The position numbers and the translations under genes are program-made. From assembly GCF_028368995.1 (NCBI RefSeq), contig NZ_JAQNDL010000003.1, positions 928,001 to 992,000 of the forward strand: a stretch of DNA of 64,000 nucleotides. The letters are read 5' to 3'. This stretch comes from Nannocystis bainbridge. Its GTDB lineage: Bacteria; Myxococcota_A; Polyangia; Nannocystales; Nannocystaceae. Shown piece by piece: positions 26,206-52,943 of this stretch (positions are counted from its first letter, which is position 1; each line of letters opens with the position of its first letter). Below the pieces are notes generated by a model. The model worked only from the letters and a program-made list of their open reading frames with translations, searched no databases and was not told where the DNA came from.

Positions 26206-26327
26206 TCAAATGTCCCTTGAGACATGCTCCCACGAACATGTCCTCTACGACATTTCCTGTTCAACATGTCCTCACAGACATGTCTTGTCCAGCGCTCTGT
26301 CTCGGACATGTCCCGCAAGACATGCCC
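26206..26327. repeat. 14-bp-period palindromic array, about 9 units, between convergent genes
   Basis: Centres at 26209, 26223, 26237, 26251, 26265, 26279, (26293 degenerate), 26307, 26321. Confidence 0.92.
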
Positions 26328-26336
26328 GACCAGCCT

Positions 26337-26714
26337 CTACCCTGCCAGCAGCCGCCCGATCCGCGACCCCAGCGCCACCATCAGCGCCCCGCCGCCGACG
26401 TGCAGCCCCAGCTGCCACGCCAGCGGCGCCCAGCGGGCCTCGCCGGCCAGCTCGACCGTCAGCAGCGCGAACGAGCTGTAGGTCGTGAACCCGCCGAGCA
26501 GCCCCGCCACCGCGATCGCCCGCGCCGGGCCTTGCGGCAGGATTGGCGCCAGCACCCCGATCGCCAGGCAGCCGATCAGGTTGACCGCCAGCGTGCCCGC
26601 GTACGGCAGCGTCGCCTCGGCCCAGCGGTCGACCCGCAGGGCCAGCACGAACCGCAGGCACACCCCGCAGCCGCCGGCCGCGAACAGCCCCGCCCACTGC
26701 CACGCGCTCGTCAT
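26337..26714 (-). CDS. crcB: Fluoride efflux channel FluC/CrcB
   Basis: GTLAVNLIGCLAIG and GLLGGFTTYSSF. Confidence 0.93.
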   Translation of the reverse strand: MTSAWQWAGLFAAGGCGVCLRFVLALRVDRWAEATLPYAGTLAVNLIGCLAIGVLAPILPQGPARAIAVAGLLGGFTTYSSFALLTVELAGEARWAPLAWQLGLHVGGGALMVALGSRIGRLLAG

Positions 26715-26716
26715 CC

Positions 26717-27835
26717 TCAGCCGGCCTTGCCGCTCGCGCCCACGGCCCCCGTCACCGACGCGCTGGCCTTGAACGACACGTTGATGCTGACCGACGCCGT
26801 CGCCACCGCCGACGCCGCCGCCGTCACGCACGCGATCGCTTGCTCGCCCGCGCCCTGCAGCTTGCCGCGCAGCTCGCCGCCGAGGCGGACCAGCGTCTGC
26901 ACCTCGCCGCCGATCTCCCGCCCCAGCTTGACCTGCGCCGCGATCAACACCGGCAGGTTGGCCGACAGCGACGCCACCAGCTTGCCCAGCGCCTGCGCCT
27001 CGCTCGAGGTCTTCACCGAGAGCTTCGGCTGCGAGCAGCGGGCCGAGAACTTCACGCTCGCCTCGCAGCTCGCCTTGCAGTCGGCGTCGACCTTCGGCGG
27101 CGTCACCCGGCCCTCGCACTTCGGCGCCTGCCAGGTGCCCTGGCACGACGCGTGGCACGTCGCGTCGCACTGGCCGGTGCACGTCCCCTCGCACTTGCCG
27201 GCGCAGCGGCCCTGCGCGTCCTTGACCGCGCACTCGCCCTGGCACTGGCCCGAGCAGCGGCCGTCGCACTGGCCCTTGCACGTGCCCTGGCAGCGGCCCG
27301 ACAGCTTGGCCGGCGTGCACTGGGCCACGATCTCGCCGGGGTCGACGTCGACCTTGCAGCGGCCGTCGCAGCGGGCCCGCGCCGACGCGTCGACGTCGCA
27401 CTTCGGCGGCGTGTAGTCGGCCTCGATCTTGACCCCGCCCTTCAGCATCCCCTGCACCCGGGCCGACACCGCCCCGCACGCCGCCTGCGACGCCGTCGAG
27501 TTCTGGTTCGGCTGCATCGCCGCCGGGTTGACGCCGATGTCGCCGCCGATCCTGCGGCAGGCGGAGGTGACCTCGCTGTCCCACTGCATCGCCAGCCGCT
27601 GCAGATCCTTGGCCGCCTGCACGAACGCCCCGACCTTGGCGTTGAGCTCGGCCTTGGCGGTGTACTTGACCCCGAGCGCGTCACCGCCGCTCGCCAGCGC
27701 CGGGCAGGCCACCGCGCCGGCGACGTTGGCGATGTTGGAGGTCGTCTGACCTGTCCCCGAGGACAGGAAGTTGCACGCGCCGGCGACGGCGGCCGCGGCG
27801 AAGATCACGAGGGCGGCCCGCGAGGTCTGCGACAT
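26717..27835 (-). CDS. Cys-rich myxobacterial-type lipoprotein
   Basis: Lipobox VAGAC; tandem CxGxC repeats flanked by helical regions. Confidence 0.8.
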   Translation of the reverse strand: MSQTSRAALVIFAAAAVAGACNFLSSGTGQTTSNIANVAGAVACPALASGGDALGVKYTAKAELNAKVGAFVQAAKDLQRLAMQWDSEVTSACRRIGGDIGVNPAAMQPNQNSTASQAACGAVSARVQGMLKGGVKIEADYTPPKCDVDASARARCDGRCKVDVDPGEIVAQCTPAKLSGRCQGTCKGQCDGRCSGQCQGECAVKDAQGRCAGKCEGTCTGQCDATCHASCQGTWQAPKCEGRVTPPKVDADCKASCEASVKFSARCSQPKLSVKTSSEAQALGKLVASLSANLPVLIAAQVKLGREIGGEVQTLVRLGGELRGKLQGAGEQAIACVTAAASAVATASVSINVSFKASASVTGAVGASGKAG

Positions 27836-27903
27836 GGCCGCGAGTGTCCCAGGTCGGCCCGAGCGGCGCAATCGCGCCGCCCTCGTTCACGGCGTTCCGC
27901 GGG

Positions 27904-28392
27904 TCAGCACGAGCCGACCGGGCAGCTGAAGCGCCCGCCGCCGCAGTCCGACGCCGCCACCGAGCTGCCGTCGGCCGCGGCGCAGCGGACATCGCAGTTG
28001 CCGACCGACTCGCAGGTGACCTCGCCGCTGACCATCACGACCTCGCAGTTCGAGAGGTTGCTGCAGTCGACCGCGCAGTCGGTCCCGCAGGCCACGTCGC
28101 AGTTGCTCACCGCATCGCAGTCGACCGAGCAGCCGTCGCCACACTCGAGGTCGCAGTTGGAGTTGTTGTGACACGACAGCTCGCAGAGGTCGCCGCAGCC
28201 GGCGTCGCAGTTGCTGACGTCGTGGCACTCGGCCGCGCAGCCCTCGGCGGGGCAATCGAGCAGGCAGTTGTCGCCGCCGCTGCAGCCGCAGGTCGTCCCG
28301 GCGCAGTAGCCCGGGGCCGGCGGCGGACCGCAAGAGCCGAGGGCCATCGACGAGACGAACAGGAACAGCCCGAGGAGCGACGTGCCGCGCAT
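27904..28392 (-). CDS. Small Cys-rich repeat lipoprotein
   Basis: Lipobox ALGSC; repeats of SNCDxxCGxxCxxxC. Confidence 0.75.
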   Translation of the reverse strand: MRGTSLLGLFLFVSSMALGSCGPPPAPGYCAGTTCGCSGGDNCLLDCPAEGCAAECHDVSNCDAGCGDLCELSCHNNSNCDLECGDGCSVDCDAVSNCDVACGTDCAVDCSNLSNCEVVMVSGEVTCESVGNCDVRCAAADGSSVAASDCGGGRFSCPVGSC

Positions 28393-28755
28393 GCGGCGGA
28401 CCCTACCACGACCGTTCCGGCGCGCACGCCCGGGTTCGCTCGCGTCGCGCCGGCCCCGCGTCGCCGCCAGCGTGCGCGCCGTGAGAGGCTCGCCGACCCG
28501 CTGCCGCCCGTGACCCCCGACCTGCTCGCCGGCCCGCTGCGGAGCGCCCTGAGCCACGCCGCGCGCGTGCGAGCCGGGCCGCCCGGACCCCGCGCCCCAC
28601 GGCGGCGACGAGGCCTGGAATCCGCCGCCGCGGCTCGCGATGCCCGCCGCTTGCACGACCCCGGCCCGGCCGCCACAGAGCCGGCGTCTCGCCGGTGATT
28701 CGCCGACATGTCCCTTCGGACATCTCGCCGATCGCCGACCTCAGGAGGTTCCACC

Positions 28756-29967
28756 ATGGCCCATCGGTTCGGGGTCGGCGCGCTCGCCGGCCTGATGTTC
28801 CCGCTCTCCGCCGCGCCCGCGGCCCACGCCGCCAGCTTCGCCGCGCCCGAGCCGTGGCTCGACGACTTCGGGGTCGCCGCGGGCTGGCGCGTCGAGAGGC
28901 ACCCGCGGCTGCTGGGCGACGTCGACGGCGACGGGCGCGACGACATCGTCGGCTTCGGCGAGCAGGGCGTCCTGGTCGCGCTGTCGAACGGCGACCGCTT
29001 CGGCGAGCCGGAGCCGTGGGTCGACAACTACTCCTACAGCAACGGCTGGCGGGTCGACAAACACCCGCGCTTCCTCGTCGACATGAACGCCGACGACAGG
29101 GCCGACATCGTCGGCTTCGGCGCCGGCGGGGTGTTCGTGTCGCTGTCGACCGGCAGCGCGTTCCTCCCGCCCAAGCTGTGGATCGATCAATTCACGATCA
29201 CCCGCGGCTGGCGGATCGATCGTCACCCGCGCTTCCTCGCCGATGTCGACGCCGACGACCGCCCCGACATCGTCGGCTTCGGCAACGGCGGCGTGCACGT
29301 CGCCCGCTCGACCGGCGCCGCGTTCGAGCCGTCCGCGCTGTGGCTCGACGATCTCGGCTACGAGCAGGGCTGGCGGGTCGATCGCAACCCGCGGCAGGTC
29401 GCCGATGTCGATGCCGACGGTCGCGCCGACGTCATCGGCTTCGGCGACGACGGGGTGTTCGTCGCCCGCGCGGCCGACGATCGCTTCACCGCGGCAGCGC
29501 TGTGGCTGACCGACTTCGGCAACGACCAGGGCTGGCGCCCCGACCAGCACCTCCGCCTGCTCGGCGACGTCGACGGCGACGACCGGCCCGACATCGTCGG
29601 CTTCGGCGCGAGCAGCACCCTGCTGTCCTTCGCGCGCAGCGGCCGGTTCACCGGGGCGACGCGGGCCCTCGACGAATTCGCCCCGGCTCAGGGCTGGCAG
29701 CTCGATCGCCACCCGCGGCTGCTCGGCGACATCGACGGCGACGGGCGGATCGACATCGTCGGCTTCGGCCAGTCGGCGGTGATCGTCGCCCCTTCGAAGC
29801 AGAACGACTTTCACGCGCCGACGCCGGTCCTCGCCGAGTTCACTTACGACCAGGGCTGGCGCGTCGGCGTGCACGTGCGCACCCTCGCCGACGTCGACGG
29901 CGACGGCCGGCGCGACATCGTCGGCTTCGGCGACGCCGGCGTGCTCGTCGCGCTCGCCGCGGACTGA
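28756..29967 (+). CDS. Secreted 7-bladed FG-GAP beta-propeller, PVL-lectin-like
   Basis: AGGAGG RBS and signal peptide; seven repeats of GWRxxxHPRxL(A/G)DVDGDGRxDIVGFG. Confidence 0.85.
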   Translation: MAHRFGVGALAGLMFPLSAAPAAHAASFAAPEPWLDDFGVAAGWRVERHPRLLGDVDGDGRDDIVGFGEQGVLVALSNGDRFGEPEPWVDNYSYSNGWRVDKHPRFLVDMNADDRADIVGFGAGGVFVSLSTGSAFLPPKLWIDQFTITRGWRIDRHPRFLADVDADDRPDIVGFGNGGVHVARSTGAAFEPSALWLDDLGYEQGWRVDRNPRQVADVDADGRADVIGFGDDGVFVARAADDRFTAAALWLTDFGNDQGWRPDQHLRLLGDVDGDDRPDIVGFGASSTLLSFARSGRFTGATRALDEFAPAQGWQLDRHPRLLGDIDGDGRIDIVGFGQSAVIVAPSKQNDFHAPTPVLAEFTYDQGWRVGVHVRTLADVDGDGRRDIVGFGDAGVLVALAAD

Positions 29968-29974
29968 ACCGCGC

Positions 29975-31855
29975 TCAGCCCTGCGACCACGCGATCAGCA
30001 GGTCGGCGAACTGGTCGACGAGGCTCGCCATGTCGGGCCCGAGCGAGTTGGTCTCCTCGTAGTGATTGCCCTCGGCCTCGTTGATCCACGGCATCGTCTC
30101 GGCCAGCTGGAAGTCGTACTCGGGGATGATGTAGCCGAGCTCGTCGTTGCCCAGGCCGATGATCCAGCGGTAGGTCAGGCCCATGCGATCCTCGAGGTAC
30201 GGCCCCTTCGGCGCCGCCTCGAGGTCCGGCGGGTTGACGTTCTCCGGCTTGATGAGCGGGACCCCGTCGGCCTTGATCTGCGAGCCGTCGTAGCCGCCGA
30301 GCGCCAGCTCGGGCAGCAGCTCGCCGGGCACCGTCAACATCTGGATCGGCCCCAGCTCGACCAGCGCCATCTCGGTCTCGATCTCCTCCTTGCCCGGCAT
30401 GTCGGCGTTGAACACCTCGCGCTCGAGCACCTCGATGTCGAAGAACAGCTTGAAGTTGGTGTTGCGGACCCCGGCGCGGAACCGCTTGGCCGCGAAGCGC
30501 AGCGCCGGCCCCGTGATCTCCTCGCCCATCGCCACCGCGTCGAGCGCCATCTCGCCGAGCATCTGCCCGACCGAGTCGGCCTTCTCGAAGCTGGCCGCCT
30601 GGTAGGTCTCGCCGTCGGGGTTCTCGACGTTGACGCCGAGCGTCGTCATCATCCCGCCGACGGCCCCGTTGATGTAGATCGCCGGCCCGCCGAGCCCGGG
30701 CTTGCCCGGCGCCGTCTGCCACTCCGAGCCGGTCTCGACCGTGCGCCGCAGCGCGTGCACGAAGTCCGAGGTCACCAGGAAGTTGTCGTTCGCCAGCGTC
30801 TCCGGGTGGCACGAGTAGTTGACGATCGTGGCGATCGGCACGCCCTCGGTGTCGACCAGGTGGGCCGCCGAGATGGTCTCGTCGACGACCCACGGGTCCC
30901 GTGAGTCGCGGATCAGGTTGGCCATGCCGCGCGGGTGATACGTCGAGACGTCGACCTCGCCGACCTTCATCGACGCGACCTCGCGCAAGTCTTCAAAGCT
31001 GTCGGTGATCGCCGCGGCGATGGTATCGCGGACCTGCTGGCGGTACGCCGGCGTGTAGCCCGAGGTGAACAGGTCGACGCCCCACAGCCCCATCGTGTCG
31101 GGCCCCTCGTGGTTGTGCGTCGCGTGCACGATCAGGTAGTCGAGGTCGACGCCCTGCTCCGCCAGCATCGCGCGGATCGCCTCGACGTCGTTGTTGAAGA
31201 GGCCGACGGTGTCGATCGCCACGATCGCCAGCGTCGACTCGCCCTGGCGAAACACCACCGCGCGGGCCCACAGACCGTCGCCCGCGCCGACCAGCCCGTG
31301 GCTCGCGTCGCGCACCCCGTAGGCCGGGCGGTCATGGCCGAACCCGGCCATGTAGAGCGGCTGCAGCTTGCCGTCGCCCTCGCCCTCGTCGGCCGCGACA
31401 TAACCAGGGTCGCCGGGGCACTTCTGGTCGCAGCCGCAGTCGAGCAGCATGTCGTCGGCCGGCTTCCACGTGTTGTCCATGTCGACGTCGACCCACTTCT
31501 CCCAGCAGTTCGGCACCAGCGACAGCACCGCCGCGCCGGCCTCGAGCGGCGCGCCCGGCTGAGCCGCGCAGCCGCCTTGCGGGCCGTCGGGACAGAATAG
31601 ATCGGGCGGGTCGGCTGGCGGATCGCCGGTCGTGCCGGCGGTCGGGTCGGGCTCACCCGTCGAAGTCGACGCCGTCGTATCGCTGGTCGTGGTCGGCGCG
31701 ACGGTCGAGGGCGCCGCGGTATCAGACGAATCGGTGGTGACCGGGGCCGTCGCGGCGGTCGCCGAGGCGTCGTCGCCGCCGGCGGCGGGGTCGAGGCAGC
31801 CGCCGAGAGCGAGGCTTGCGAGGGCGAGAATTCGGCTGCTTCCACGCGGTGTCAT
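29975..31855 (-). CDS. Thr-rich lipoprotein with neutral/alkaline ceramidase-like domain
   Basis: Lipobox LGGC; DGLWARAVV, HATHNHEGPD, NYSCHPE, INGAVG, TVPGE, NDELGYI. Confidence 0.75.
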   Translation of the reverse strand: MTPRGSSRILALASLALGGCLDPAAGGDDASATAATAPVTTDSSDTAAPSTVAPTTTSDTTASTSTGEPDPTAGTTGDPPADPPDLFCPDGPQGGCAAQPGAPLEAGAAVLSLVPNCWEKWVDVDMDNTWKPADDMLLDCGCDQKCPGDPGYVAADEGEGDGKLQPLYMAGFGHDRPAYGVRDASHGLVGAGDGLWARAVVFRQGESTLAIVAIDTVGLFNNDVEAIRAMLAEQGVDLDYLIVHATHNHEGPDTMGLWGVDLFTSGYTPAYRQQVRDTIAAAITDSFEDLREVASMKVGEVDVSTYHPRGMANLIRDSRDPWVVDETISAAHLVDTEGVPIATIVNYSCHPETLANDNFLVTSDFVHALRRTVETGSEWQTAPGKPGLGGPAIYINGAVGGMMTTLGVNVENPDGETYQAASFEKADSVGQMLGEMALDAVAMGEEITGPALRFAAKRFRAGVRNTNFKLFFDIEVLEREVFNADMPGKEEIETEMALVELGPIQMLTVPGELLPELALGGYDGSQIKADGVPLIKPENVNPPDLEAAPKGPYLEDRMGLTYRWIIGLGNDELGYIIPEYDFQLAETMPWINEAEGNHYEETNSLGPDMASLVDQFADLLIAWSQG

Positions 31856-31922
31856 GGGCGCTCCAGAGCGATCGTCGCCAGGGTACAACAAGCGCGGGCG
31901 GCCGTGCTAAGGTCCGCGCCGC

Positions 31923-32687
31923 ATGGCGACGCGGCACTACGGCTACACCGACGTCGGCCGGGTGCGCAGCCGCAACGAGGACGCCTTCCTCGCCGACGCG
32001 CAGCTCGGCCTCTTCATCGTCTGCGACGGCGTCGGCGGCCGGGCCCGCGGCGAGATCGCCAGCCAGGAGACGGTCGAGTTCATCGTCGATTTCGTCAAGG
32101 GCGACGCGACCGACATCGAGATCGCCCGCCACGGCGGCGAGCTCGATCAAGCGGCCCGCCAGCGCCTCTCCGCGCTGCTCCGCGGGGCCATCCAGAGCGC
32201 CTGCTACATGGTCCACACCATGGGCGAGATGGACCCTGACCGCCGGGGCATGTCGACCACCGCCTCGGTGGTGCTGGTGGCCGGCCAGGTCGCCACGGTG
32301 GCGTGGGTCGGCGACTCGCGGGTCTACCTGTGGCACGCCGGCGAGCAGGTCCAGCTGACCGACGACCACACCCTGGTGAACGCGCACATCCGTCAAGGCA
32401 CGATGACGCCGGAGGCGGCCAAGGTGTCGCACCTGAAGCACGTGATCACCCGCGCCGTCGGCCACCGCGAGTTCGTCGAGGTCGACGTCCGCCAGCTCGA
32501 CCTGGCCCCCGGCGACAAGCTGCTGCTGTGCAGCGACGGCCTCCACGAGTACCTCGACGAGCCCGACCTGCTGGCCCGCCTGTTCCAGACCGACCTGGCC
32601 ACCGCCGCCCGCGACGCCGTCCGCCACGCCAACATCAACGGCGGCCGCGACAACATCACCGCGCTGTTCGTCGAGTACACCGGCTGA
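31923..32687 (+). CDS. PP2C-family Ser/Thr phosphatase
   Basis: TDVGRVRSRNED, VCDGVGG, GMSTT, VGDSR, LLCSDGL, GRDNIT. Confidence 0.92.
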   Translation: MATRHYGYTDVGRVRSRNEDAFLADAQLGLFIVCDGVGGRARGEIASQETVEFIVDFVKGDATDIEIARHGGELDQAARQRLSALLRGAIQSACYMVHTMGEMDPDRRGMSTTASVVLVAGQVATVAWVGDSRVYLWHAGEQVQLTDDHTLVNAHIRQGTMTPEAAKVSHLKHVITRAVGHREFVEVDVRQLDLAPGDKLLLCSDGLHEYLDEPDLLARLFQTDLATAARDAVRHANINGGRDNITALFVEYTG

Positions 32688-32693
32688 CTCTTC

Positions 32694-32759
32694 GGACATG
32701 TTCTCCAAAGCATGTCCCGATGGGCATGCCCTCCAGGACATGCCTCATCGAGCATGTCC
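32694..32759. repeat. 14-bp-period palindromic array, 5 units, between convergent genes
   Basis: CATG at 32697, 32711, 32725, 32739, 32753. Confidence 0.92.
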
Positions 32760-32854
32760 TATCAGCCACGCGCGATCTGCCGTATCACCTGCCTCATGGG
32801 GCAGCTCGTGAGCTGGACCGGTCCTGGCGAGCTGTCTCCGGCTCCTCTGCCAGC

Positions 32855-35781: not shown

Positions 35782-35998
35782 GCTCGTCCTCGGCTTCGAC
35801 GGCGTCGACCGCCCGGCTCAGGTAGAGCCCCACCAGCACCGCCGTGTTGGCGAGGATGATCAGGACCACATACGCCAGCGACCACGGCACCCCGAGCACG
35901 CGCGGCTCGATGTGGTCGCCCAGGAGCGGATAGAGCGGCCACACCAGCATCGCCGTCGAGGCGACGAAGTACAGCGGCGACAGGCGAACCCAGCGCAT
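35774..35998 (-). CDS. Small 2-TM SSS partner protein (DUF3311-like)
   Basis: EPRVLGVPW motif; overlaps the start of the SSS gene. Confidence 0.7.
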   Translation of the reverse strand: MRWVRLSPLYFVASTAMLVWPLYPLLGDHIEPRVLGVPWSLAYVVLIILANTAVLVGLYLSRAVDAVEAEDEHG

Positions 35999-36079
35999 CG
36001 ACCATCACTGATACGAGAAATTTCGCGCCGTTCCCAGGCCCTTCCGGCCCTGCGCGGCCGGCGGTACACTCGCGGGCGC

Positions 36080-39021: not shown

Positions 39022-39230
39022 TCGCCTGACCTTCGGGACATGTCCGTTCGCGCATGTCCCGAAGGCCACGTCCGCCGAAGCCCACCCGCGGGCGCCGTCC
39101 TCTCCGCCATGAGGGCGCCGCGCTCGCTGCACCTGCGTCGACCATCGCCGGAGCGCCGCGCTCGCGTCGCGCCCGCTCGCACGCAAGGGTTTAGTCGAGT
39201 TCGCCGCGACATGTCCCTGGCGACATGTCC
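39022..39230. repeat. 14-bp-period palindromic arrays (4 + 2 units) between convergent genes
   Basis: Centres at 39025, 39039, 39053, 39067 and at 39210, 39224. Confidence 0.85.
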
Positions 39231-39277
39231 CATCCGCCAGCAAGCCGCCGCGCCCGCCTCGCGGCTCGGCGCGAGCC

Positions 39278-40774: not shown

Positions 40775-40894
40775 TGGCCCCGCGATGCTGGCAAAAGCCC
40801 CGCAGGCCAGCAACGGGCGCAGACGCGCATCTGCGCGCCCAGGCGGTCCGGGCGAGGTGCGGCGCGAATTTGTCCGCCGACCGTCGCGGGCCGA

Positions 40895-42049: not shown

Positions 42050-42053
42050 CGCC

Positions 42054-43175
<1,122 letters not shown>

Positions 43176-43187
43176 AGGCCGCGAAAG

Positions 43188-45224
43188 CTACGCCGTGTCG
43201 CGCTCGCCCGGCAACGTCCGCCCGCGTGAGGCCCCGCCCGCGTGCAGGGGCGCCTCGAACCACCGCACCGGCGGCCCGTCCGGATCGCCGGGCAGCGGCA
43301 ACTCGGCCTCTTGCACCTCCACCGTGCTCAGCACCGTCACGTGCGGCGTACCGCGGCCCAGCAGCAGCGCGAACACCGGCCGCGCGCGCGGCGAACAGAC
43401 CACGAGCGGCGGCGGCCCTTCCTCGAGCGCTTCGCCGCCGACAACATCGTTCTGCGCGAGAACCCGTCGGCGCCAGGCCTGGCGCGCGCGGGCGTCGAGC
43501 CCGAGCCGCAGCCCGCGGTCGCCGCTGACCGCCCGTGACAGCAGCGCCGCCTCCGCGTCGGCCACCGGCCGCACCCACGTCACAGCGCCCACGCGGGCGT
43601 GGGCCGCCACCACCTCGCCGACCCACTGCGGCGCCAGCCGTTCGCGCAGCGCTCCGAGCCAGCGGCCCCGCTCGCTCGCCTGCCGCAGCAGCGGCTCGGA
43701 CGCGATCGCCTCGAGCAGCCCCGCGAACGGCGGCAGCGGCACCCGCTCGCGCAGCAGCCCGCGCGTCAGCTCGAGCAGCTCGGCCGGCCCGACCCGCGCC
43801 AGCGCCTCGCGCACCACCGCCGGCTCGCGCCCGCCCTGCTCCTCCAGCGCCCGCGCGATCGTCTCCAGGTCGACCAGCGCCTCCGCCCCCCGCATCACCG
43901 CGCGAAACACCGCCGTCACGATCCTGTCCTGTCGAGCATGCCCTGAAGGACCTGCCCGATCGAGCATGTCCTTTCGACCATCCTCCTCGCGACCTCCGCT
44001 CGACATGTCCTCGAGGACATCCAGCCCGCCGCCCCACTCTCCCTCTCGCCTGTCCCTGAGGACATCCACCTCCGGCGCGCTCAGCACTCGCTCGCCGAGG
44101 CGCACCGCGAAGCTCGGCCCTGCCACCGCCACGATCGGCGGCACCTCGACGCCCAGCGCCCCCGCGCAGCGGCGCCGCAGCTCGGCCAGCGGCCCGCGCA
44201 GCGCCTGGATGTCCTTTTCATCATGTCCCGGGAGACAGACCACGATCTGCCGCCCTGGCGGCCCTCGCCGCTGCCGCGTCCACCACGCCAGCGCCCCCAG
44301 CCCGAAAGCCGTGGTCGAGAACGCCGCCGCCGGCATGCCCGGCGCCAGCGCCAGCCCGGCCAACAGCCCCGCCGGGGCCGCCAACAGCCCCGGAGTCCAC
44401 CACGCCGCCCCGCGGGTCGCCGGCTCCTCGCGGTCGACCCTCGCCACCAGCAGCGCCCCCGCCAGCCCGACCAGCAGCGCCGGCACCTGCGCCAGCAACC
44501 CGTCGCCGATCGCCAGCCGCCCGTACAGCTCGAGCGACGCCGACAGCCCCAGCCCCTCGCGCAGCCCCATCACCACCCCACCGACCACGTTCACGCTCGT
44601 CAGCACCAGCCCGAGGATCGCGTCGCCGCGGATGAACTTGGCCGCCCCGTCCATCGCCCCGTAGAAGTTCGAGCGCTCGCGCAGGCGCGCCCGCAGCCGC
44701 GTCGCCTCCGTCGCCGAGATCGTGCCTGCCCGCAGATCGGCCTCGATCGCCGCCTGGTGCCCCGGCAGCCCGTCGAGCGCGAACCGGGCCGCGACCTCGG
44801 CGATGCGCTCGCCGCCGCGGGCCACCACCACGAACTGCACCACCGTCACGATCGCAAACACCACCGCCCCGACCACCAGGTCGCCCTGGATCACCAGCGT
44901 CGAGAACGCCGCGATCACCTCGCCCGCGTCCGCGTCGCGCAGGATCAGCCGCGTCGTCGTCACGTTGAGCGCCATCCGCGTCAGCGTCATCAGCAGCAGC
45001 AGCCGCGGGAACCCCAGCAGCTCCGCGCTGCGCCGCGCCGTCACGCTGGCCACCAGCGCCGTCACCGAGCCCGCCAGGCTCAGCGTCAGCAGCAGGTCGA
45101 CCAGCCAGCGCGGCAGCGGCAACAGCGCGCAGGTCACCGCCGCCAGCACCCACAGCACCAGCCCGTAGCCCGGCAGGACCGCCCAGATATCCGCTCCGGA
45201 GCCCGCGGCTCGGCCGATGCGCAT
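43188..45224 (-). CDS. FlhA/SctV (FHIPEP family) export-gate-like protein, divergent
   Basis: FPRLLL...RMALNVTTTRLIL, RIAEVAARFALDGLPG, NFYGAMDGAAKFIRGDA, IGDGLLAQVPALL, LLRERVP, VTVLS. Confidence 0.85.
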   Translation of the reverse strand: MRIGRAAGSGADIWAVLPGYGLVLWVLAAVTCALLPLPRWLVDLLLTLSLAGSVTALVASVTARRSAELLGFPRLLLLMTLTRMALNVTTTRLILRDADAGEVIAAFSTLVIQGDLVVGAVVFAIVTVVQFVVVARGGERIAEVAARFALDGLPGHQAAIEADLRAGTISATEATRLRARLRERSNFYGAMDGAAKFIRGDAILGLVLTSVNVVGGVVMGLREGLGLSASLELYGRLAIGDGLLAQVPALLVGLAGALLVARVDREEPATRGAAWWTPGLLAAPAGLLAGLALAPGMPAAAFSTTAFGLGALAWWTRQRRGPPGRQIVVCLPGHDEKDIQALRGPLAELRRRCAGALGVEVPPIVAVAGPSFAVRLGERVLSAPEVDVLRDRREGEWGGGLDVLEDMSSGGREEDGRKDMLDRAGPSGHARQDRIVTAVFRAVMRGAEALVDLETIARALEEQGGREPAVVREALARVGPAELLELTRGLLRERVPLPPFAGLLEAIASEPLLRQASERGRWLGALRERLAPQWVGEVVAAHARVGAVTWVRPVADAEAALLSRAVSGDRGLRLGLDARARQAWRRRVLAQNDVVGGEALEEGPPPLVVCSPRARPVFALLLGRGTPHVTVLSTVEVQEAELPLPGDPDGPPVRWFEAPLHAGGASRGRTLPGERDTA
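43920..44069. repeat. Degenerate 14-bp-period array inside the FlhA-like CDS
   Basis: Centres at 43923, 43937, 43951, 43965, 43979, 43993; then 44004/44018 and 44049/44063. Confidence 0.8.
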
Positions 45225-45398
45225 TGCCGCACAGGCTAGCGAGGCGCGAACGCGCGCCAAGATCCGCAAGTGTTCAGTGCGATTTCGCCCCTCACGCGCC
45301 GCGGATCCGCGCGCTCCGGCGGCGGGGTCCGATCGCGGTCCTGCTCGCGTCGGTCTTGCCCGCGTCGCCCCGTCACGCGAGCGAGGGCTCGGCGAAGA

Positions 45399-46358: not shown

Positions 46359-46389
46359 TCTACTCGACGCCTCGCGCCGCGCCCACCTG

Positions 46390-47130
46390 TCACGCCGGCG
46401 CCCGCCAGGCCCCGCGCAGCGCCAGCGTCGCTGGCGGCTGGATCGCCTCGTGGTGCAGCTTGCCCATCAGCTGGAACAAGTTGAACACCACCACCGTCGC
46501 CAGCGCGCCCAGCTTGCTCACCGTCCCGAACACCGGCGGCCACAGACACAGCGCCGTGCACCAGCCCGCCACGGCAGGCAGCCCCACCACCAGCGCCGCC
46601 GTCAGCCCCATCAGCTTGCGCCGCCACCGGCGCGGATCGGCGTCGGCGACCAGCATGCCGTCTGGCCCTTGGGACAGCCACACCCGATCGCCGGTCCCGA
46701 TCGACACCTCGACCGCGCGCGTCCACCCGGCCGCGCGGGTCGCTGGCGCGCGTGCGGCCGCGAACGCCTCCGGGCCCGGGCAGGCCGCTGCTGCCCGCTG
46801 GCGCGCTCGCTCGACCCACACCGTCCCGCCGGCCAGCCCGACCTGCTCGCCCTCGATCGCCACCACCCCGCCGAGCACCTCGCCCTCGTACGCGCGGTCG
46901 TGGAACCAGATCGCGGCGTCGCCCTTCGAGCGGCCGACCTGGCGCACCCGGTGGATCGCCACCTGTCCTGCGGGACCTGTCCCTTCGACCACCACGCCGA
47001 CCCGCGCCTGCGCGCCCCAGCGCCCCAGCAGCCGCCGGCACTCGCCCCACCCGGCCGCCGCGATCAGCAGCGTGTTGAGCCAGAAGATCGCCAGCGCCGC
47101 GTACGCCAGCCAGGCCGGGAACCCGCTCAC
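46390..47130 (-). CDS. Hypothetical membrane protein
   Basis: Three hydrophobic segments; overlaps the desaturase stop (GTGA). Confidence 0.65.
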   Translation of the reverse strand: MSGFPAWLAYAALAIFWLNTLLIAAAGWGECRRLLGRWGAQARVGVVVEGTGPAGQVAIHRVRQVGRSKGDAAIWFHDRAYEGEVLGGVVAIEGEQVGLAGGTVWVERARQRAAAACPGPEAFAAARAPATRAAGWTRAVEVSIGTGDRVWLSQGPDGMLVADADPRRWRRKLMGLTAALVVGLPAVAGWCTALCLWPPVFGTVSKLGALATVVVFNLFQLMGKLHHEAIQPPATLALRGAWRAPA

Positions 47131-48134
47131 GCCGCCGCTCCTTCGGGGCCCGACTGCTCGCGGGCCGCCTGCTGCTCCGCCGCCGCGCGCCGCTCTCCGC
47201 GGGCCGCCTGCTCGTCCTCACCGCCGGCGCGCGCGCGCACCGACGGCCGCCGGCGCGGCAGCAAGAACGTGCGCAGCAGGTACAGCACCATGCTCGGCTC
47301 GTCGAGGCGCGGCTCGATGCGCGGCGCCACTTCTCGGCGGTGGGCCTCGGCCAGCTCGGTCCAGTGCAGCCCGGCGCGGTTGTGGTGGATCGTGTGGTAG
47401 CCGTTGTTGCACATGATCCAGTTGAACCACCGGCCGACGAAGTTGCGCGAGTGGTTCCACTCGCTCGACGGGTCGGTCGCGTCGTGCTGGATCAGGTTGA
47501 TGCGGAGGATGCAGCGCGCCCCGTACAGCTGCGGCAGGACGATGAACAGCAGCGCGCCCCAAAAATCGTAGAGCAGCGCTGCCCCGGTCAGCCCGAACGC
47601 CACGATCGTCTCGGTCATGTACTGGCGCACGAAGCCCTGCTGCTTCGTCACCTTGGCCCAGCGCCCGACCCCCGCGAACGTGTTGGGCCCGGCGATGTTG
47701 GGGAAGTGGATCAGGTTGAGCAGGTGCCAGCGGAACGCCACGTGCGACGGGTCGGCCCAGTCGGGCTGGCCGTCGTCGGCGAAGTGGTGGTGCACCAGGT
47801 TGTGCGCCGGCACGTTGGCCGAGGCCGGGTACAGCACGCCGAAGCTCAGCACGCTGCGCCAGACCAGGTTGAGCCGGTGCGAGTGGAAGATCCCGCGGTG
47901 CATGTGATTGTGGATCACGACCGCGTTGAGGAAGCTCAGCAGGCACGCCAGCACGAACGGCAGCGGGTGGCGGCACGCCGGCACGAAGTACATCAGCGCC
48001 AGCAGCCCGAGGTACGCGCCGACGATCCCGACCTGGCGCCACTCCTCTGGCTGGCGCACGAGCCAGGTCTCGCGCTCGCGCTCGCGCTCGTGCGCAGCCG
48101 GCTTCGCACCGGCGAGTTCGCCCTGGGACGCCAT
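47127..48134 (-). CDS. Membrane fatty-acid desaturase family protein
   Basis: His boxes HNHMH, HNLVHH, HTIHH. Start inferred. Confidence 0.88.
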   Translation of the reverse strand: MASQGELAGAKPAAHERERERETWLVRQPEEWRQVGIVGAYLGLLALMYFVPACRHPLPFVLACLLSFLNAVVIHNHMHRGIFHSHRLNLVWRSVLSFGVLYPASANVPAHNLVHHHFADDGQPDWADPSHVAFRWHLLNLIHFPNIAGPNTFAGVGRWAKVTKQQGFVRQYMTETIVAFGLTGAALLYDFWGALLFIVLPQLYGARCILRINLIQHDATDPSSEWNHSRNFVGRWFNWIMCNNGYHTIHHNRAGLHWTELAEAHRREVAPRIEPRLDEPSMVLYLLRTFLLPRRRPSVRARAGGEDEQAARGERRAAAEQQAAREQSGPEGAAA

Positions 48135-48255
48135 CGCCGCGGCACCATACTGCGACGACCGGAAGGCCTCAATCTCCGCGCGCGTGGGGACAATCTCGAC
48201 GCGCCCCTGCGCGCGTGATATCCCTGCCCCGCGCCTGTCGGCGCCCGTCTGCACC

Positions 48256-49101
48256 GTGACCGCCCACACCGGCATCGCCACCAACCTCTCCACGTGGCTC
48301 ACCGCGCAGCCCTCGGTCCAGTACCGCAGGAACCCGTGGTTTTACTTCCTTTACGACGGCGGCTACCTGCTGGCCTTCCTCGCGCTCGACGCCTGGATCC
48401 TCGCCACCGGCCAGGCCCCGCTGGTCCAGTGGCAGTGGTGGTACCTGGGGCTGCTCCCGGGCGTCATCTACTGCCACATCCTGCTCAACGTCTTCATCCA
48501 CAACTGCTGCCACGGCAACTTCCCGCGCCCGATCAACCGCCTGATCGGCGAGGTCGCCGGCGTCCTCGTCATCACCCGCTACGCCTCGTGGGAGATCATC
48601 CACCAGCGGCACCACCGCTTCTCCGACGACCCCGAGCGTGACCCGCACCACGTGATGCCGAGCTTCTGGCGCTTCCTCGCCCGGACGATGCTCGTCAACG
48701 TCGAGAAGCAGCTGCAGAACCAGGCCTACGACCAGTTCGGCGACACCCCCGAGATGCGCCGGCGCGAGCAGCTGCGCAGCGTGCTCAGCTTCTCGGTCAT
48801 GATCCCGCTCAACCTCGCGTTCTGGCTGCTGCTCGGCCCCGAGGCGTTCTTCTTCCTGTGGCTGCCGGCCCAGGCCGTCGGCTGGGTCCACGTCGCCCAC
48901 TTCAACTGGGCCACCCACAACGCCCACTCGCCGACCGGCGACTACAAGCCCGTCAACCTCGACCACGGCCTCTACTGGCTCGGCAACCGCGTCTTGTTCG
49001 GCCTCTACATGCACGCCAACCACCACAAGCGGGCCAACATCTTCAACCCGGCCAAGATGGACGAGGTCATGGCGCGCCGGGCCGCCGCCCGCGCCCAGTA
49101 G
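48256..49101 (+). CDS. Membrane fatty-acid desaturase family protein
   Basis: His boxes HNCCH, HQRHH, HANHH. GTG start inferred. Confidence 0.88.
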   Translation: MTAHTGIATNLSTWLTAQPSVQYRRNPWFYFLYDGGYLLAFLALDAWILATGQAPLVQWQWWYLGLLPGVIYCHILLNVFIHNCCHGNFPRPINRLIGEVAGVLVITRYASWEIIHQRHHRFSDDPERDPHHVMPSFWRFLARTMLVNVEKQLQNQAYDQFGDTPEMRRREQLRSVLSFSVMIPLNLAFWLLLGPEAFFFLWLPAQAVGWVHVAHFNWATHNAHSPTGDYKPVNLDHGLYWLGNRVLFGLYMHANHHKRANIFNPAKMDEVMARRAAARAQ

Positions 49102-49181
49102 CTCGCTGTCCGTTCGGGCATGCTCCTCGGAGCATGCCCGTTCGCGCATGTGCGATCGGACATGCCCGTTCGCACATGTCC
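49102..49181. repeat. 14-bp-period palindromic array, 6 units, between convergent genes
   Basis: Centres at 49105, 49119, 49133, 49147, 49161, 49175. Confidence 0.92.
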
Positions 49182-49182
49182 C

Positions 49183-50235
49183 TCAGGCCACCACCGGCAC
49201 CCCGTGCCCGGCCTCGTCGGTCAGGATCTCGAACGCCGCGCGATCGCTGCTGAGCGCGACCGTCGGCTTGCCCGGCCGCCGCACCTGCAGCTCGCAGCGG
49301 GCGATCTTGCTGTTGAGGCAGGTCTTGACCCCGCCGGGGGGGTTGCCGTACGCGAGCCCGACGAAGGCCGCGCGCGGGGCGGAGATCCGCGCCTCGACCG
49401 CGACCTCGCGGGTCTGCGACGCCAGCGTCCAGGTGAACTCGGACCCACCGAGCGCCACCTCGCCGCGGGCTCGCGCCGCCTGCCACAGCGAGTTGAGCGC
49501 GAACTGCTCGCCCTCGAGCCGCAGCACCAGCAGCGTCATCGGCGGGGTCCACAGCGGCCCGAACTTCAGCCGCGCCGTCGCGCACTCGAGGAAGCTGTCC
49601 GGCGCGCCGTCGAAACCGGCCACCTGGCCCCACGCGTAGCGGTCGGTGTGACGCGCGCCCCAGTTGTGCGACTGACTGCCGGTCCACCCGTCGATCGCGT
49701 GCGCCTCGCCGTCGACCGTGATCGTGCCGGTGAAGGCCGCGTTCGGCGAGCCGACCAGCGACTTGGCCTTGGGGAACCCGCCGGCGTAGAGGTTGGCCGG
49801 CAGCAGCAGCAACGGCGGCTCGGGGCTGGTGTACGCCAGCTCCCAGGCGAACGTATGCGCCGCCCCGACGACCGCGCCCCGCAGGCCGCGATCGTCCAAC
49901 ACGGCCTCGCCGACGCGCACGTCGAGCCGGTCGCGGGCGAACGCGCAGCGCTGCCACGGCACCACCTGCTTGGCCGCGGCGATGCTGCCGCGCTCGCCGT
50001 CGAACCAGATCGACCACAGCTCGCCGACGGCCCGATCCGGCTGTCCTTTGGGACAGAAGATGGTGTAGCGGATCCACCACGCCAGCGGCCGCGTCGGGTG
50101 GTTGGCCCGCTGGAAGTAGCTCTCGTAGTGTCCCGCCGTCGCGGCAGGATCGAAGCGGCAGGCGTTCCAGCGGTCGCGGTCGACGGGCACGCGGCGAGCG
50201 TGCCGCGAGCCCCCACCGCTGTCCACGGCCGCCAT
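49183..50235 (-). CDS. Hypothetical protein, tocopherol-cyclase/AttH-like fold
   Basis: HYESYF, WIRYT, FTGTITVDG, GSQSHNWG...YAWG. Start uncertain. Confidence 0.6.
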   Translation of the reverse strand: MAAVDSGGGSRHARRVPVDRDRWNACRFDPAATAGHYESYFQRANHPTRPLAWWIRYTIFCPKGQPDRAVGELWSIWFDGERGSIAAAKQVVPWQRCAFARDRLDVRVGEAVLDDRGLRGAVVGAAHTFAWELAYTSPEPPLLLLPANLYAGGFPKAKSLVGSPNAAFTGTITVDGEAHAIDGWTGSQSHNWGARHTDRYAWGQVAGFDGAPDSFLECATARLKFGPLWTPPMTLLVLRLEGEQFALNSLWQAARARGEVALGGSEFTWTLASQTREVAVEARISAPRAAFVGLAYGNPPGGVKTCLNSKIARCELQVRRPGKPTVALSSDRAAFEILTDEAGHGVPVVA

Positions 50236-50461
50236 CTCACGATCGGCGAAACCCTCTACGTCACCGCATCGACCGGTGATGTCCCGAAGCACCCGAGTCG
50301 CCACTGCGACGACCGGCGGTGCCCCCGACGCGCGCCCGGGTCGTCGCCCCACCGCCGGGCCGCGCGAAGCAATCGCCTCGCACCGGCGCGCCCTGTCGCG
50401 CAGGGCCGGCGACCGCCGCGTCGCTGGTCAAACGCCGCGAATTTTGGCACTCCTGCGGACC

Positions 50462-51298
50462 GTGGCCCTCGCGCCTCAGCTCGCGGTCGTCGCCTGGCTC
50501 GCCCTCGCCGCGGCCCCGCTCGAGCTGCAGACCGACGCCGTCGATCCGCGCCTCACCGAAGCCGGCCTGCGCGCGCGCGTCGGCGACGACCTCGACGCGT
50601 GGACGCTCCGCGTCCGCCCCGGCCCGACCGAGCGCGAGCTCGAAGTCCGCCTGCGCGGCCCCGACGGCGCCACGCGCACGCGCCGGCTGATCCTCTCCGG
50701 CACCACCCGCGAAGACCGCAGCCGCGAGCTCGCCGCCAGCCTCACCCTGCTCATGGATGAGGCTTCGGCCCCCCCACGCGGAGGCAAGCCCGCGACACCG
50801 CCCCCACCCGCGCCTCGCGCCCCGACGTCGGGCTGGCTCGGCCTCGGTCCGCGCGTCGAAGCCGGCCCCAAGCTCGCCGAGGGCGGCGTCGACGTGATGG
50901 GCGGCGCCTGGCTGCTGCGCGATCACCTGCAACCGATCGCCAGCCTCGGCCTCGGCGGCGCCGCGCCCGAGGACGTGTCCCTGTTTCACCTCCGCTTCGG
51001 CGGCGGGCTGGCCGCCGGCGCCTCGCTGCTCGACCGGCGGATCTGGCTCGGAGGACATGTCCTCGCCCACGCGCTGCGCTCGCGACTCCGCGAGCGCGAT
51101 CATCTCCGCGTCGACTGGATGGCGTCGACGGAGATCGGCGCGACCCTGCAATACCGCGGTCGGCGCCTGTTCCTCGGCGCCCGCACCGGGGTCGATCTCG
51201 TGCTGCCGCCGCGTCCGGTGCCAGGCCACGGGGCGCGGATCCGGCGCGGTCCGGCGCAGTGGGTGCTCGGCCTCGTCGTCGGCGTCGTCTTCGGCTGA
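50462..51298 (+). CDS. Hypothetical envelope protein, probable C-terminal beta-barrel
   Basis: Signal-like N-terminus and amphipathic strands ending VVGVVFG; upstream of the ECF sigma. Start uncertain. Confidence 0.55.
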   Translation: MALAPQLAVVAWLALAAAPLELQTDAVDPRLTEAGLRARVGDDLDAWTLRVRPGPTERELEVRLRGPDGATRTRRLILSGTTREDRSRELAASLTLLMDEASAPPRGGKPATPPPPAPRAPTSGWLGLGPRVEAGPKLAEGGVDVMGGAWLLRDHLQPIASLGLGGAAPEDVSLFHLRFGGGLAAGASLLDRRIWLGGHVLAHALRSRLRERDHLRVDWMASTEIGATLQYRGRRLFLGARTGVDLVLPPRPVPGHGARIRRGPAQWVLGLVVGVVFG

Positions 51299-51369
51299 GC
51301 GGCCTTGGATTTGTCGCGGCCGACCCGGTCTATAGCTACGTGTTCAGCTCCGCTACACTCTGGCCGGCC

Positions 51370-51942
51370 ATGACCTCGCGGGCCGCAGTCAGGGACGTGG
51401 AGAGCGCCGCCGTCCTGGCGGCCGCGCAGGACGGCGACAGGGCCGCCCAGGCCGCGATCTTCGAGGCCTACAAGGAACGGGTCGCCCGCCAGGTGTTCCG
51501 CATGACCGGCGACGCGTCGTCGGTCGACGACCTGGTCCAGGAGGTCTTCATCTCCGCCTTCTCGGCCCTCGGTCGGTTCCGCGGCGACGCCCAGCTCGGC
51601 ACCTGGCTCTACACCATCGCCGCCAACCGCGTGCGCAACTGGTGGGACTCCCAGCGCCGCCGCCGTCGCCGCGAGGACATCGCCTCGGCCCACGCCGACG
51701 ACCCCGTGGCCACCCCCGAGGCCGACCTCGAGGCCCGCCAGCAGCGCGACCACCTCTATCGCGCGCTCGGCGAGCTGCCCGACAAGCTGCGCGAGTCGTT
51801 CGTCGCCCGCGCGATCGAGGGCATGAATTTGCACGAGGCCTCGGCCGCGCTCGGCGTGCCGATCAGCACCGTCTCTTACCGCACCCGTCGCGCCGAACAG
51901 ATGCTGTGCGCCGCCCTGGGGATCCCCTGGAGGGATGAATGA
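51370..51942 (+). CDS. ECF RNA polymerase sigma factor
   Basis: DDLVQEVFI, FRGDAQLGTWLYTIAAN, region-4 LGVPISTVSYR. Confidence 0.92.
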   Translation: MTSRAAVRDVESAAVLAAAQDGDRAAQAAIFEAYKERVARQVFRMTGDASSVDDLVQEVFISAFSALGRFRGDAQLGTWLYTIAANRVRNWWDSQRRRRRREDIASAHADDPVATPEADLEARQQRDHLYRALGELPDKLRESFVARAIEGMNLHEASAALGVPISTVSYRTRRAEQMLCAALGIPWRDE

Positions 51943-52859
51943 GCCCCGATTTTCGCCCCGCCCCCGGCGAGCCCGCCGTCCGTTCGCCCGAGCTGCTGCG
52001 CCTGGTCCAGGCCGCCCGAGTCGCGCCACCACCTGTCCTCAAGGCCAGCTCAGACGCCGTGTTCGCCGGCTTCCAGGCCCGCCGCCGCGACCGTCGCCGC
52101 CTGGTCGTCGGCGCCGCCGTGGCCGTCGCCGCCGCCGTGGCGCTGCTCTGGGCCCGCCCTTCGTTCATGTCCTCCAGGACAGGTACTTTGGAACCTGTCG
52201 CAACGAACAGCATGCAGGCACCCCACGTCGCGCCGCTGCCGGTCCTGGCCGAAGCCGTGCGCGTGGTCGCCGAGGAGGGCCCGCCCGCGGGCGTTCGCGG
52301 CGAGTGGCAGGTCGAGCTCGGCGACGGCCGCTACGACGTCACCGTCGCCGCCCACGCTGGCCCCGAGCTGCTGCGCGTCGACACGGCCGGCGGCACCGTC
52401 GAGATCGCCCAGGGCCGGGTCGTCATCGTCGTCGCCGGCGCCCGCACCGAGGCCGTCCTGCGCACCGGCGTGGCCACGTGGATCGCCCCCGGCGGCGCCC
52501 GCACCCCGCTCGCCGTCGCCCCGGCCGAGGCCAGCCTCGACGACGCACCTGACCCGAAGGCCAGCCCGTCCGACCTCGCCCGCCACGCCGACGCCCTGCT
52601 GGCCGCCGGCCGCCGCGACGCCGCCATCCGCGTGCTCGACCTGCTCGTCACCACCCACCCGGACAGCCCCCCGGCCCGCGCCGCCCTGCTCGACCTGGCC
52701 CGCCTCCTCAAGGCCGCCTCGCGCGCCGACGAGGCCCGCTGCGCCTACGCGCTCTACCTGGCCCGCTACCCAGGCAAGGAGCAGCTCGCCGATGAGGTCG
52801 AAGCCGCCCTGAGCCGCCTCGGCCCCGGCCCCGCCTGCACCGACCTGCGCCCGCGCTGA
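51939..52859 (+). CDS. Putative anti-sigma factor (TM + FecR-like + TPR)
   Basis: ATGA overlap with the sigma gene; single TM, beta-rich domain and C-terminal TPR (YLARYP). Confidence 0.7.
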   Translation: MSPDFRPAPGEPAVRSPELLRLVQAARVAPPPVLKASSDAVFAGFQARRRDRRRLVVGAAVAVAAAVALLWARPSFMSSRTGTLEPVATNSMQAPHVAPLPVLAEAVRVVAEEGPPAGVRGEWQVELGDGRYDVTVAAHAGPELLRVDTAGGTVEIAQGRVVIVVAGARTEAVLRTGVATWIAPGGARTPLAVAPAEASLDDAPDPKASPSDLARHADALLAAGRRDAAIRVLDLLVTTHPDSPPARAALLDLARLLKAASRADEARCAYALYLARYPGKEQLADEVEAALSRLGPGPACTDLRPR

Positions 52860-52865
52860 CGCGCC

Positions 52866-52943
52866 GAGCCTGTCCGTAGGTCATGTCCCTACGGACATGT
52901 TCGTGCGGACCTGTCCATTCGAACATGTCCCGAAAGCACGAGA
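52866..52943. repeat. 14-bp-period palindromic array, about 6 units, between convergent genes
   Basis: Centres at 52869, 52882, 52896, 52910, 52924, 52937. Confidence 0.9.

Follow-up and report, generated by a model that had tools for sequence, protein, structure and literature searches.

Phased arrays in the window

The window analyzed here is a 64,000-nucleotide stretch of the genome of Nannocystis bainbridge, a myxobacterium of soil, in which a first-pass annotation had described arrays of four to nine tandem units with a 14-bp period, placed immediately after stop codons at five convergent gene junctions. Analysis of the whole genome (G000; 11.05 Mb, 71.5% GC, 90% complete) identified the elementary unit of these arrays as the interrupted dyad TGTCC-N4-GGACA, referred to below as the box. 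We give about an even chance to the explanation that the boxes form protein-bound operator arrays, selected for their position at the 3' ends of genes and read by an XRE/Cro-type helix-turn-helix (HTH) protein.

Genes were called with our own dicodon caller, not taken from an existing gene annotation, and flanking genes were named by Pfam. All five arrays were found, each located between the stop codon of a plus-strand gene and the stop codon of a minus-strand gene:

26204..26329, no strand assigned: phased array whose 6 + 2 scored units are joined across a degenerate slot near 26293; the gene before it encodes an amidohydrolase (+, stop 26190), the one after it is crcB (-, stop 26337)
32685..32768, no strand assigned: phased array with 5 CATG junctions, beginning at the stop codon (32687) of a PP2C gene (+); the convergent partner is an FGE-sulfatase-like gene (-, stop 32855)
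39027..39075, no strand assigned: three-unit array behind a SEC-C gene (+, stop 39021)
39205..39232, no strand assigned: two-unit array close to where the convergent GGDEF gene ends (-, stop 39278)
49107..49190, no strand assigned: array occupying the whole 81-bp convergent spacer between a desaturase gene (+) and a tocopherol-cyclase-like gene (-)
52871..52938, no strand assigned: array whose terminal boxes are 13 bp long, flanked by a TPR gene (+, stop 52859) and by an MlaD gene (-, stop 52995)

The places given for the five arrays were correct; the array at 39022, however, consists of three profile-scored units only, and a separate two-unit array lies at 39205. The 14-bp phase was found to hold, resuming after the degenerate slot at 26293. 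The array at 52866 is the sole one of the five with two 13-bp steps, which result from a 3-base spacer in its first and last boxes. Head-to-tail units create GGACATGTCC, as had been noted; this sequence is the junction and the box is the elementary unit. The array at 49107..49190 has the same length and phase in three relatives and is 1 bp shorter in a fourth.

The box in the genome and in the family

The genome contains 1,987 exact copies of TGTCC-N4-GGACA, against 0-16 copies at each other spacer length from 0 to 12. A profile of the box gave 11,349 matches at score 10, compared with 232 in the reversed genome, and the profile scan called 2,844 arrays with at least two units. In controls of the array caller on contig C2, 657 arrays were called in the real sequence, 3 in the reversed contig, 15 at period 13 and 17 at period 15. 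The genome-wide spacing of CATG, which the annotation had proposed as a check, showed the 14-bp excess: 3,736 pairs at 14 bp, 72 at 13 bp and 79 at 16 bp. Between genes, neighbouring boxes were spaced by 14 bp in 726 cases, by 15-19 bp in none, and by 28, 42 and 56 bp in 239, 94 and 43 cases.

Isolated copies of the box retain base preferences three bases past each end, so that the site extends over about 20 bp; its flanks match the core of a neighbour placed at offset 14. The annotation had read the phase as cooperative polymerisation, with successive dimers rotated by about 120 degrees; this would be one explanation, but the 14-bp step also follows from the overlap of such extended sites. 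The units themselves are diverse: 1,452 of the 1,670 interior units are distinct, the commonest was found 5 times, and adjacent units are identical at a fraction of 0.449 of the variable positions, against 0.432 for random pairs, in agreement with the earlier description of a conserved phase with divergent sequence. Arrays with near-identical units are few. There are 379, 312, 210, 75, 21 and 5 arrays of 4, 5, 6, 7, 8 and 9 units, respectively, a plateau at 4-6 units followed by a fall after 7 that was also seen in long spacers. The longest array, of 20 AT-rich units (G000:C3:1237910-1238190), lies behind what we take, from sequence resemblance, to be a YbjQ-like gene and ahead of a presumed threonine-synthase-like gene.

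The motif is symmetric in transcript orientation, with a C/G ratio of 0.95 in the sense strand. At the centre of the spacer AA/TT is enriched 4.3-fold over background, TA 2.7-fold and AT 2.2-fold, while GC is reduced to 0.17-fold. An AT-preferring free spacer centre is expected from indirect readout by dimers of the Cro/434 type. The fixed spacer, the fixed phase, the symmetry in transcript orientation, the AT-rich centre and the low covariation described below together point to a dimer on double-stranded DNA; the protein reading suggested by the annotation is supported by the strict 4-base spacer and the symmetry.

Arrays of at least three units occur in 558 of 1,510 convergent spacers (37%), 450 of 5,092 tandem spacers (9%) and 51 of 1,508 divergent spacers (3%), at a median distance of 16 bp from a stop codon. 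At the stop codon the number of boxes per gene and 25-bp interval jumps sharply from 0.017 to 0.194. In long tandem spacers (273 arrays), 56% of the arrays lie within 40 bp of the upstream stop and 4% within 40 bp of the downstream start; in long convergent spacers (74 arrays), 68% lie near stops, against 29% expected. The enrichment at convergent junctions claimed by the annotation was therefore clear, but arrays are not confined to them, being also found in genes and in co-directional and divergent spacers. The two contrary outcomes that the annotation had named, a random distribution over spacer types and near-identical units, were not observed: spacer types are unequal, convergent above divergent, and units are not near-identical. 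Convergent spacers were occupied more often the higher the GC content at third codon positions (GC3) in the genes on either side, 5% (37 spacers) at the low end and 85% (117 spacers) at the high end; occupancy was lowest beside atypical genes. The standardised coefficient for GC3 was 1.06, compared with 0.20 for the length of the converging gene run. Boxes showed no evident gradient relative to ori or ter and are spread across all contigs.

Orthologous arrays were compared among relatives. The 59 orthologous unit pairs compared in phase came from 13 of the 32 gene ends with arrays in both genomes, and from four related and hence not independent genomes; core positions were 97-100% identical, other positions 54-86% and fourfold sites 83%. 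Among 508 orthologous gene-end comparisons, arrays were present in both genomes in 32, only here in 53 and only in the relative in 15. Orthologous arrays vary by substitution at fixed length, and arrays within genes showed no clean insertion in the cases seen. Boxes within genes are located in low-complexity linkers.

The family comparison included 73 genomes, 23 box-rich ones from three genera and 50 box-poor ones. Boxes number 114-2,090 in this genus (11 genomes), 87-169 (5 genomes) and 67-696 (7 genomes) in the two sister genera, and 0-20 in each box-poor genome; 132 genomes of other families of the class also have 0-20 each. Long tiled arrays were found only in six genomes of this genus, with 1,005-1,670 triplets, against 2-62 triplets in its other five genomes and 0-4 in 30 others. 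In the sister genera the sites are mostly single (15 loci were inspected in each, of 87 and 67); some lie in AT-rich upstream regions and about 40-47% are coding (6/15 and 7/15). Named records with the four-junction pattern were mostly Nannocystis among 80 of at least 102 such records, and the two-box pattern was found in none of the viral contigs. No analogous dispersed spaced dyad was found in the box-poor genera G045, G019 and G076 (200 kb each). Other repeats seen were a dyad CCTCCCT-N6-AGGGAGG in G013 (L191-L200; 52 copies in 200 kb, possibly one CRISPR-like array) and a 7-bp tandem repeat of about 24 copies in G019 (L211-L220).

Within the window, 16 arrays were called. Called genes contain five of them, and four are located in spacers that are co-directional or divergent; of the 11 convergent junctions, 5 carry an array. 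Arrays away from convergent junctions include:

13574..13671, no strand assigned: seven-unit array in the open frame 11821-14340 (-)
18386..18469, no strand assigned: six-unit array in a co-directional spacer behind mreC
43918..43987, no strand assigned: five-unit array in an FHIPEP-family gene (43188-45224, -), adjoining a length-variable linker
52161..52202, no strand assigned: three-unit array in the TPR gene 51939-52859, conserved in four relatives
60553..60580, no strand assigned: two-unit array in a co-directional spacer, 5 bp past a stop codon (+, 60548)

The array at 13574..13671 keeps its length and phase and contains no stop in four relatives, although the encoded residues differ. 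Two other repeats were also seen in the window. At 39080-39270, two-box modules are interspersed with a second GC-rich repeat (CGCGCCGCGCTCGC-like), which enlarges orthologous spacers by 270-800 bp in relatives (spacers in G010, G005, G001 and G007). A 162-bp coding repeat of 6.6 copies lies at 28882-29951, in a gene of 403 amino acids (aa).

Candidate reader and termination context

The likeness of the spacer pattern to 434-type operators led to a search of the HTH_3 class. The candidate reader is an XRE/Cro-type HTH protein of 126-133 aa with two genes, both outside the window:

G000:C3:1091654-1092055, +: XRE candidate gene
G000:C1:4266693-4267073, -: XRE paralog

The pair is distinguished by a basic insertion between helices 1 and 2. 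Strong matches (67-97% identity) were found in 20 of the 23 box-rich genomes and in none of the 50 others, and two copies are present in all 11 genomes of this genus, which is the richest in boxes. The protein family is small (34 clusters; 3 representatives at E 1e-30). HTH residues T49-K58 are invariant in 28 of 28 aligned homologs (27 of the 34 clusters and the query), and the recognition helix differs in distant relatives. The structure model (mean predicted local distance difference test, pLDDT, 83) has a fold matching SinR, C.AhdI/C.BclI, P22 c2 and 434 Cro; no sequence match to the protein was found in the PDB, and the homodimer prediction scored 0.28, which is evidence neither way.

Boxes were found upstream of both genes, that is, in promoters, a place the box otherwise avoids. 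The C3 copy has 3 upstream boxes, equalled by 0.9% of 1,852 divergent promoters, and ranks 57th of the 1,852 by summed score. The C1 copy has 2 boxes within 90 bp, as have 4.2% of 2,492 promoters, and ranks 126th of the 2,492. In metagenome contigs, 29 of 33 distinct regions upstream of XRE homologs contain at least one box and 20 of 33 at least two, compared with 8.7% and 0.7% of 300 background windows; these contigs hold 41 boxes at spacer 4 against 0-6 at other spacers. As with operators of the XRE/Cro type, a co-distributed HTH_3 protein is thus accompanied by sites in the regulator's own promoters. From the distribution, the conservation and these promoter sites, the XRE protein probably binds the boxes.

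Several other readers were tried and rejected. LexA was discarded on the basis of a loose match in 1 of 17 repair-gene promoters and a recognition helix that is identical in box-rich and box-poor genera. PadR, whose operator is ATGT-8N-ACAT (PMC10295242), has no match in this genome and occurs in 18 of 73 genomes, both box-rich and box-poor. A ParB/parS or Noc-type site was rejected, since one ParB is present in each of 5 genomes and boxes lie on all contigs; six parS-like sites were seen near dnaA on C1 (G000:C1:4343336-4345333), and the single parB lies on C3 (C3:1147112), near xerC-like genes. A MerR-like protein (G000:C3:1160007), raised by one upstream box in G063, was found in 67 of 73 genomes, with an unchanged recognition helix in several box-poor genera. 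Its gene forms, with a sigma-70 region 4 gene, a pair conserved across the family (G000:C3:1160007-1161231), and in this genus a short box array directly follows the first stop. No 5-methylcytosine (5mC) methylase was found in this genome, which has 12 matches to N6/N4 methylases. The REP-associated tyrosine transposase (RAYT; Y1_Tnp) had no match either; the control search matched in 6 of 14.

The usual means of ending transcripts were found to be scarce. Rho was found in none of the 73 family genomes and in 79 of the 132 genomes of other families in the class; one apparent match was a neighbouring TatD-like gene. Several of those other families mostly lack it in the genomes sampled (found in 3/19, 6/17, 0/6 and 2/9), so that the loss of Rho in these myxobacteria extends beyond a single family. 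No gene replacing rho at its locus was found, the neighbours of rho not being syntenic. The available part of a supplementary table lists five Nannocystaceae, including Nannocystis exedens, without a Rho homolog and with a U-rich length of 0 (PMC13613805), and lineages without Rho and U-tract terminators must use other mechanisms according to the accessible text of PMC11347177, whose sample does not include this family.

In our scans for terminators and hairpins, which were home-made, U-tract terminators occurred in 125 of 1,206 convergent spacers, a background level when compared with 161 of 1,463 divergent controls. Among array-bearing convergent spacers, 52 of 546 had a hairpin with a U-tract, not above the same controls, and the arrays were rejected as canonical intrinsic terminators. 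They were also rejected as Rho utilisation sites, given the absence of Rho and a sense strand that is not C-rich and G-poor. At 26 convergent junctions of the box-poor genera G045, G019 and G076, GC hairpins mostly without U-tracts were found. Since Rho-less box-poor genera carry plain GC hairpins instead of boxes, the loss of Rho is context for the arrays and not their cause.

Interpretation and comparison with known systems

The following mechanism would account for these results. Dimers of a lineage-specific XRE/Cro-type HTH protein would read TGTCC-N4-GGACA, about 20 bp with its flanks, on double-stranded DNA. Two sister genera may represent the earlier state: one gene, and mostly single sites numbering from tens to hundreds. 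In this genus the gene is duplicated, and the box would have multiplied to about 10^4 copies, tiled at 14 bp, presumably the one register under 20 bp where neighbouring sites fit. Rows of about 5-7 bound dimers behind stop codons could act as a two-way 3' boundary, a roadblock or pause limiting convergent read-through; the transcribed copies may also fold into 3' hairpins, as a secondary aid. Weak or dynamic binding would allow single boxes and occasional rows to be tolerated in genes. If the protein does bind the boxes, the position of the arrays and the scarcity of the usual terminators tip the balance slightly towards such a boundary function. The wider proposition, that a duplicated phage-repressor-type protein tiling rows of 14-bp operators is a third way to end bacterial transcription, replacing Rho and U-tract terminators, is rather doubtful.

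A number of observations weigh against this explanation. Called genes contain 797 of the 1,986 exact boxes and 118 of the 920 strong arrays, and the midpoints of 255 of 1,381 arrays of at least three units also fall in them. A strong roadblock should not allow the seven-unit array conserved within an open frame at 13574, and 63% of convergent spacers are without a three-unit array. The XRE pair was chosen after viewing the 18 HTH_3 matches of this genome, and a single upstream box was also seen for 2 of the 11 other HTH_3 genes called; the metagenome XRE loci are kin. Three box-rich genomes, all 60-67% complete and one of them holding 696 boxes, gave no match to the protein, by profile search included. 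The box-rich genomes need just 1-2 origins on two gene trees, so that the co-occurrence of box and XRE protein may be a single evolutionary event. The profile of an HU paralog (21 of 23 box-rich genomes, 0 of 50 others) is like that of the XRE protein. Finally, Rho is absent from the 50 box-poor genomes of the family and from much of other families, and its loss therefore does not predict the box.

The arrays might instead act as RNA, forming conserved 3' stem-loops that end or stabilise transcripts in both directions, in which case any protein reader would see an RNA hairpin. This could explain why symmetric double changes of the two arms were observed 665 times against 344 expected (1.9-fold), with non-symmetric ones at 2,121 against 2,034, a further result that counts against the XRE explanation, although template-switch repair could yield such symmetry without selection. 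G-U exceeds C-A in the sense strand at one stem position (212 vs 102; 70:84 and 142:18 by replication strand), UNCG loops are found at 62:36 and GNRA loops at 62:43, and folding of real arrays was favoured over that of unit-permuted ones by about 0.9-1.1 kcal/mol (500 arrays). Together these make a real, if smaller, signal of RNA type. A strong hairpin is present in convergent spacers with or without an array (74% of 366 and 70% of 224), compared with 39% of 514 divergent spacers. However, mutual information at pairing positions is at most 0.02 bits, single mismatches outnumber compensated pairs, and the sense strand folds better than the antisense in just 141 of 252 cases. Hairpins need neither a fixed loop length of 4 nor a phase of 14, the loop centre is AT-rich, and no Rfam match was found in the window. 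We regard this RNA explanation as unlikely.

Slightly less probable still is that the protein does bind the boxes but serves, like EspR, as a nucleoid-organising or titrated factor, or that a biased process, of the sort proposed for HIP1 and DUS/USS (see below), enriches them; they would then accumulate where they are tolerated, off promoters and in linkers of proteins, with no role at transcript ends. The rise of occupancy with GC3 is as expected for slow accumulation, and the low-complexity linkers around in-gene boxes, the turnover of arrays at gene ends and the coding share of the sister-genus sites are all compatible with it. Tolerance does not explain the sharp step at the stop codon, the attraction to stops even in long convergent spacers, or the plateau at 4-6 units with a drop after 7 regardless of spacer length, and for a biased process no 5mC methylase was found. 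It is improbable that the reader is a different one: an HU paralog, another protein, or gyrase recruited in a BIME-like (bacterial interspersed mosaic element) manner where convergent transcription overwinds DNA. An extra HU paralog (G000:C5:217084-217377; L379), the fourth HU/IHF-family gene of this genome, has an altered strand-1 motif and an insertion between helices 1 and 2 and is found only in the three box-rich genera; 19 of the 23 box-rich genomes and none of the 50 others have at least four HU-family genes, and the top 21 matches of the paralog each come from a box-rich genome. But the paralog diverges fast (35-43% identity to the sister genera) while the box does not, it has no upstream box, and we know of no HU-type protein that reads a strict dyad. 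As for gyrase, occupancy does rise weakly with the converging gene run, far below the effect of GC3, but gyrase has no tie to the box sequence.

An origin of the arrays as mobile or reverse-transcribed repeats (like REP doublets forming hairpins, REPINs; miniature inverted-repeat transposable elements, MITEs; or the multicopy single-stranded DNA, msDNA, of N. exedens), or by recent slippage, appears highly improbable. A retron-type reverse transcriptase is encoded in the genome, and the few arrays with near-identical units could reflect slippage. These explanations do not fit the diversity of interior units, the absence of Y1_Tnp/RAYT, the substitutions at fixed length without clean insertion, or the lowest occupancy beside atypical genes, and the 400 bp upstream of one retron reverse transcriptase had no match to the box pattern used. 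In G001 about 14 near-identical reverse transcriptase genes were seen, against 3 in this genome; by their size they may be of the group II intron type.

The box and its arrays are apparently undescribed, as no description was found in literature searches. According to the available text of PMC6868368, msDNA-like repetitive sequences were reported for N. exedens in 1997; this also speaks for a mobile origin and is possible prior art for the box. The motif in Bifidobacterium (PMC5217627) differs from it. The proposed reader is now specific and cheaply testable; since the cis element can be counted, a candidate protein is named and the genus can be cultured, the arrays give one testable answer to how bacteria without Rho and U-tract terminators end their transcripts. 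Even without a role in termination, they would be a repressor-type operator multiplied in phase to about 10^4 copies, whose earlier states can be seen in sister genera, and, if so, an unusual record of a transcription factor turning into a chromosome-wide factor. There is also a practical relevance for the expression in other hosts of the large biosynthetic clusters of the genus.

Among known systems, REP (repetitive extragenic palindromic), BIME and REPIN elements of enterobacteria and pseudomonads are palindromes in hundreds to thousands of copies after stop codons, enriched at convergent junctions and in tandem clusters; they are also characterised by binding gyrase, IHF or Pol I. The arrays share with them the position just 3' of genes and the convergent enrichment. 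Their unit, by contrast, is an interrupted dyad of 14 bp whose free spacer has a fixed length; the units are tiled with no linkers between them and nearly all differ. There is no conserved 20-40-nt unit, no terminal tetranucleotide tag and no near-identity of copies, and the candidate reader is an XRE protein. The BIME membership that the annotation had offered as an alternative is not borne out, no RAYT being found in the genome; many REP hosts, however, are also without RAYT.

In their position the arrays also recall the tuberculosis Rho-independent terminator (TRIT) of Mycobacterium, described in the available text of PMC3152330 as a genus-restricted bidirectional palindrome at gene ends, in 147 single copies, for which a binding factor was suggested by its authors. 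Both are conserved palindromes at gene ends where standard terminators are scarce; unlike TRIT, the box has about 10^4 copies, forms phased rows, occurs in genes too and shows weak covariation, in a host without Rho. The heptamer repeats of Xanthomonas and Nostoc are, in the accessible part of PMC4692102, G-rich repeats with strand polarity that number about 185 per genome and prefer aligned genes. Like the boxes they are dispersed intergenic tandem repeats near stops and rare between divergent genes; boxes, in contrast, are dyads and favour convergent junctions.

The box also accumulates in permissive places, within genes and between them, as do the highly iterated palindrome HIP1 of cyanobacteria and the DNA uptake sequences (DUS/USS), short words that are clade-restricted and highly iterated in and between genes. 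It is distinguished from these by its interrupted dyad, the strict tandem phase, the step at stop codons and a genome with no 5mC methylase.

By the tests that define each class, the arrays are not REP/BIME elements, intrinsic terminators, Rho sites, SOS boxes, PadR operators or parS. The binding modes of 434, P22 c2, C proteins, SinR and EspR involve a dyad site with an uncontacted, AT-preferring centre, and their regulons comprise a few to hundreds of sites near promoters. The HTH_3 fold of the candidate, the dyad, the AT-preferring centre, the putatively autoregulatory promoter sites and the adjacency of sites are similar; the thousands of sites, mostly at 3' ends, and a reader with a basic insertion between helices 1 and 2 are not. 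On these comparisons the arrays appear most like REP/BIME or TRIT in position and most like Cro-type operators in anatomy.

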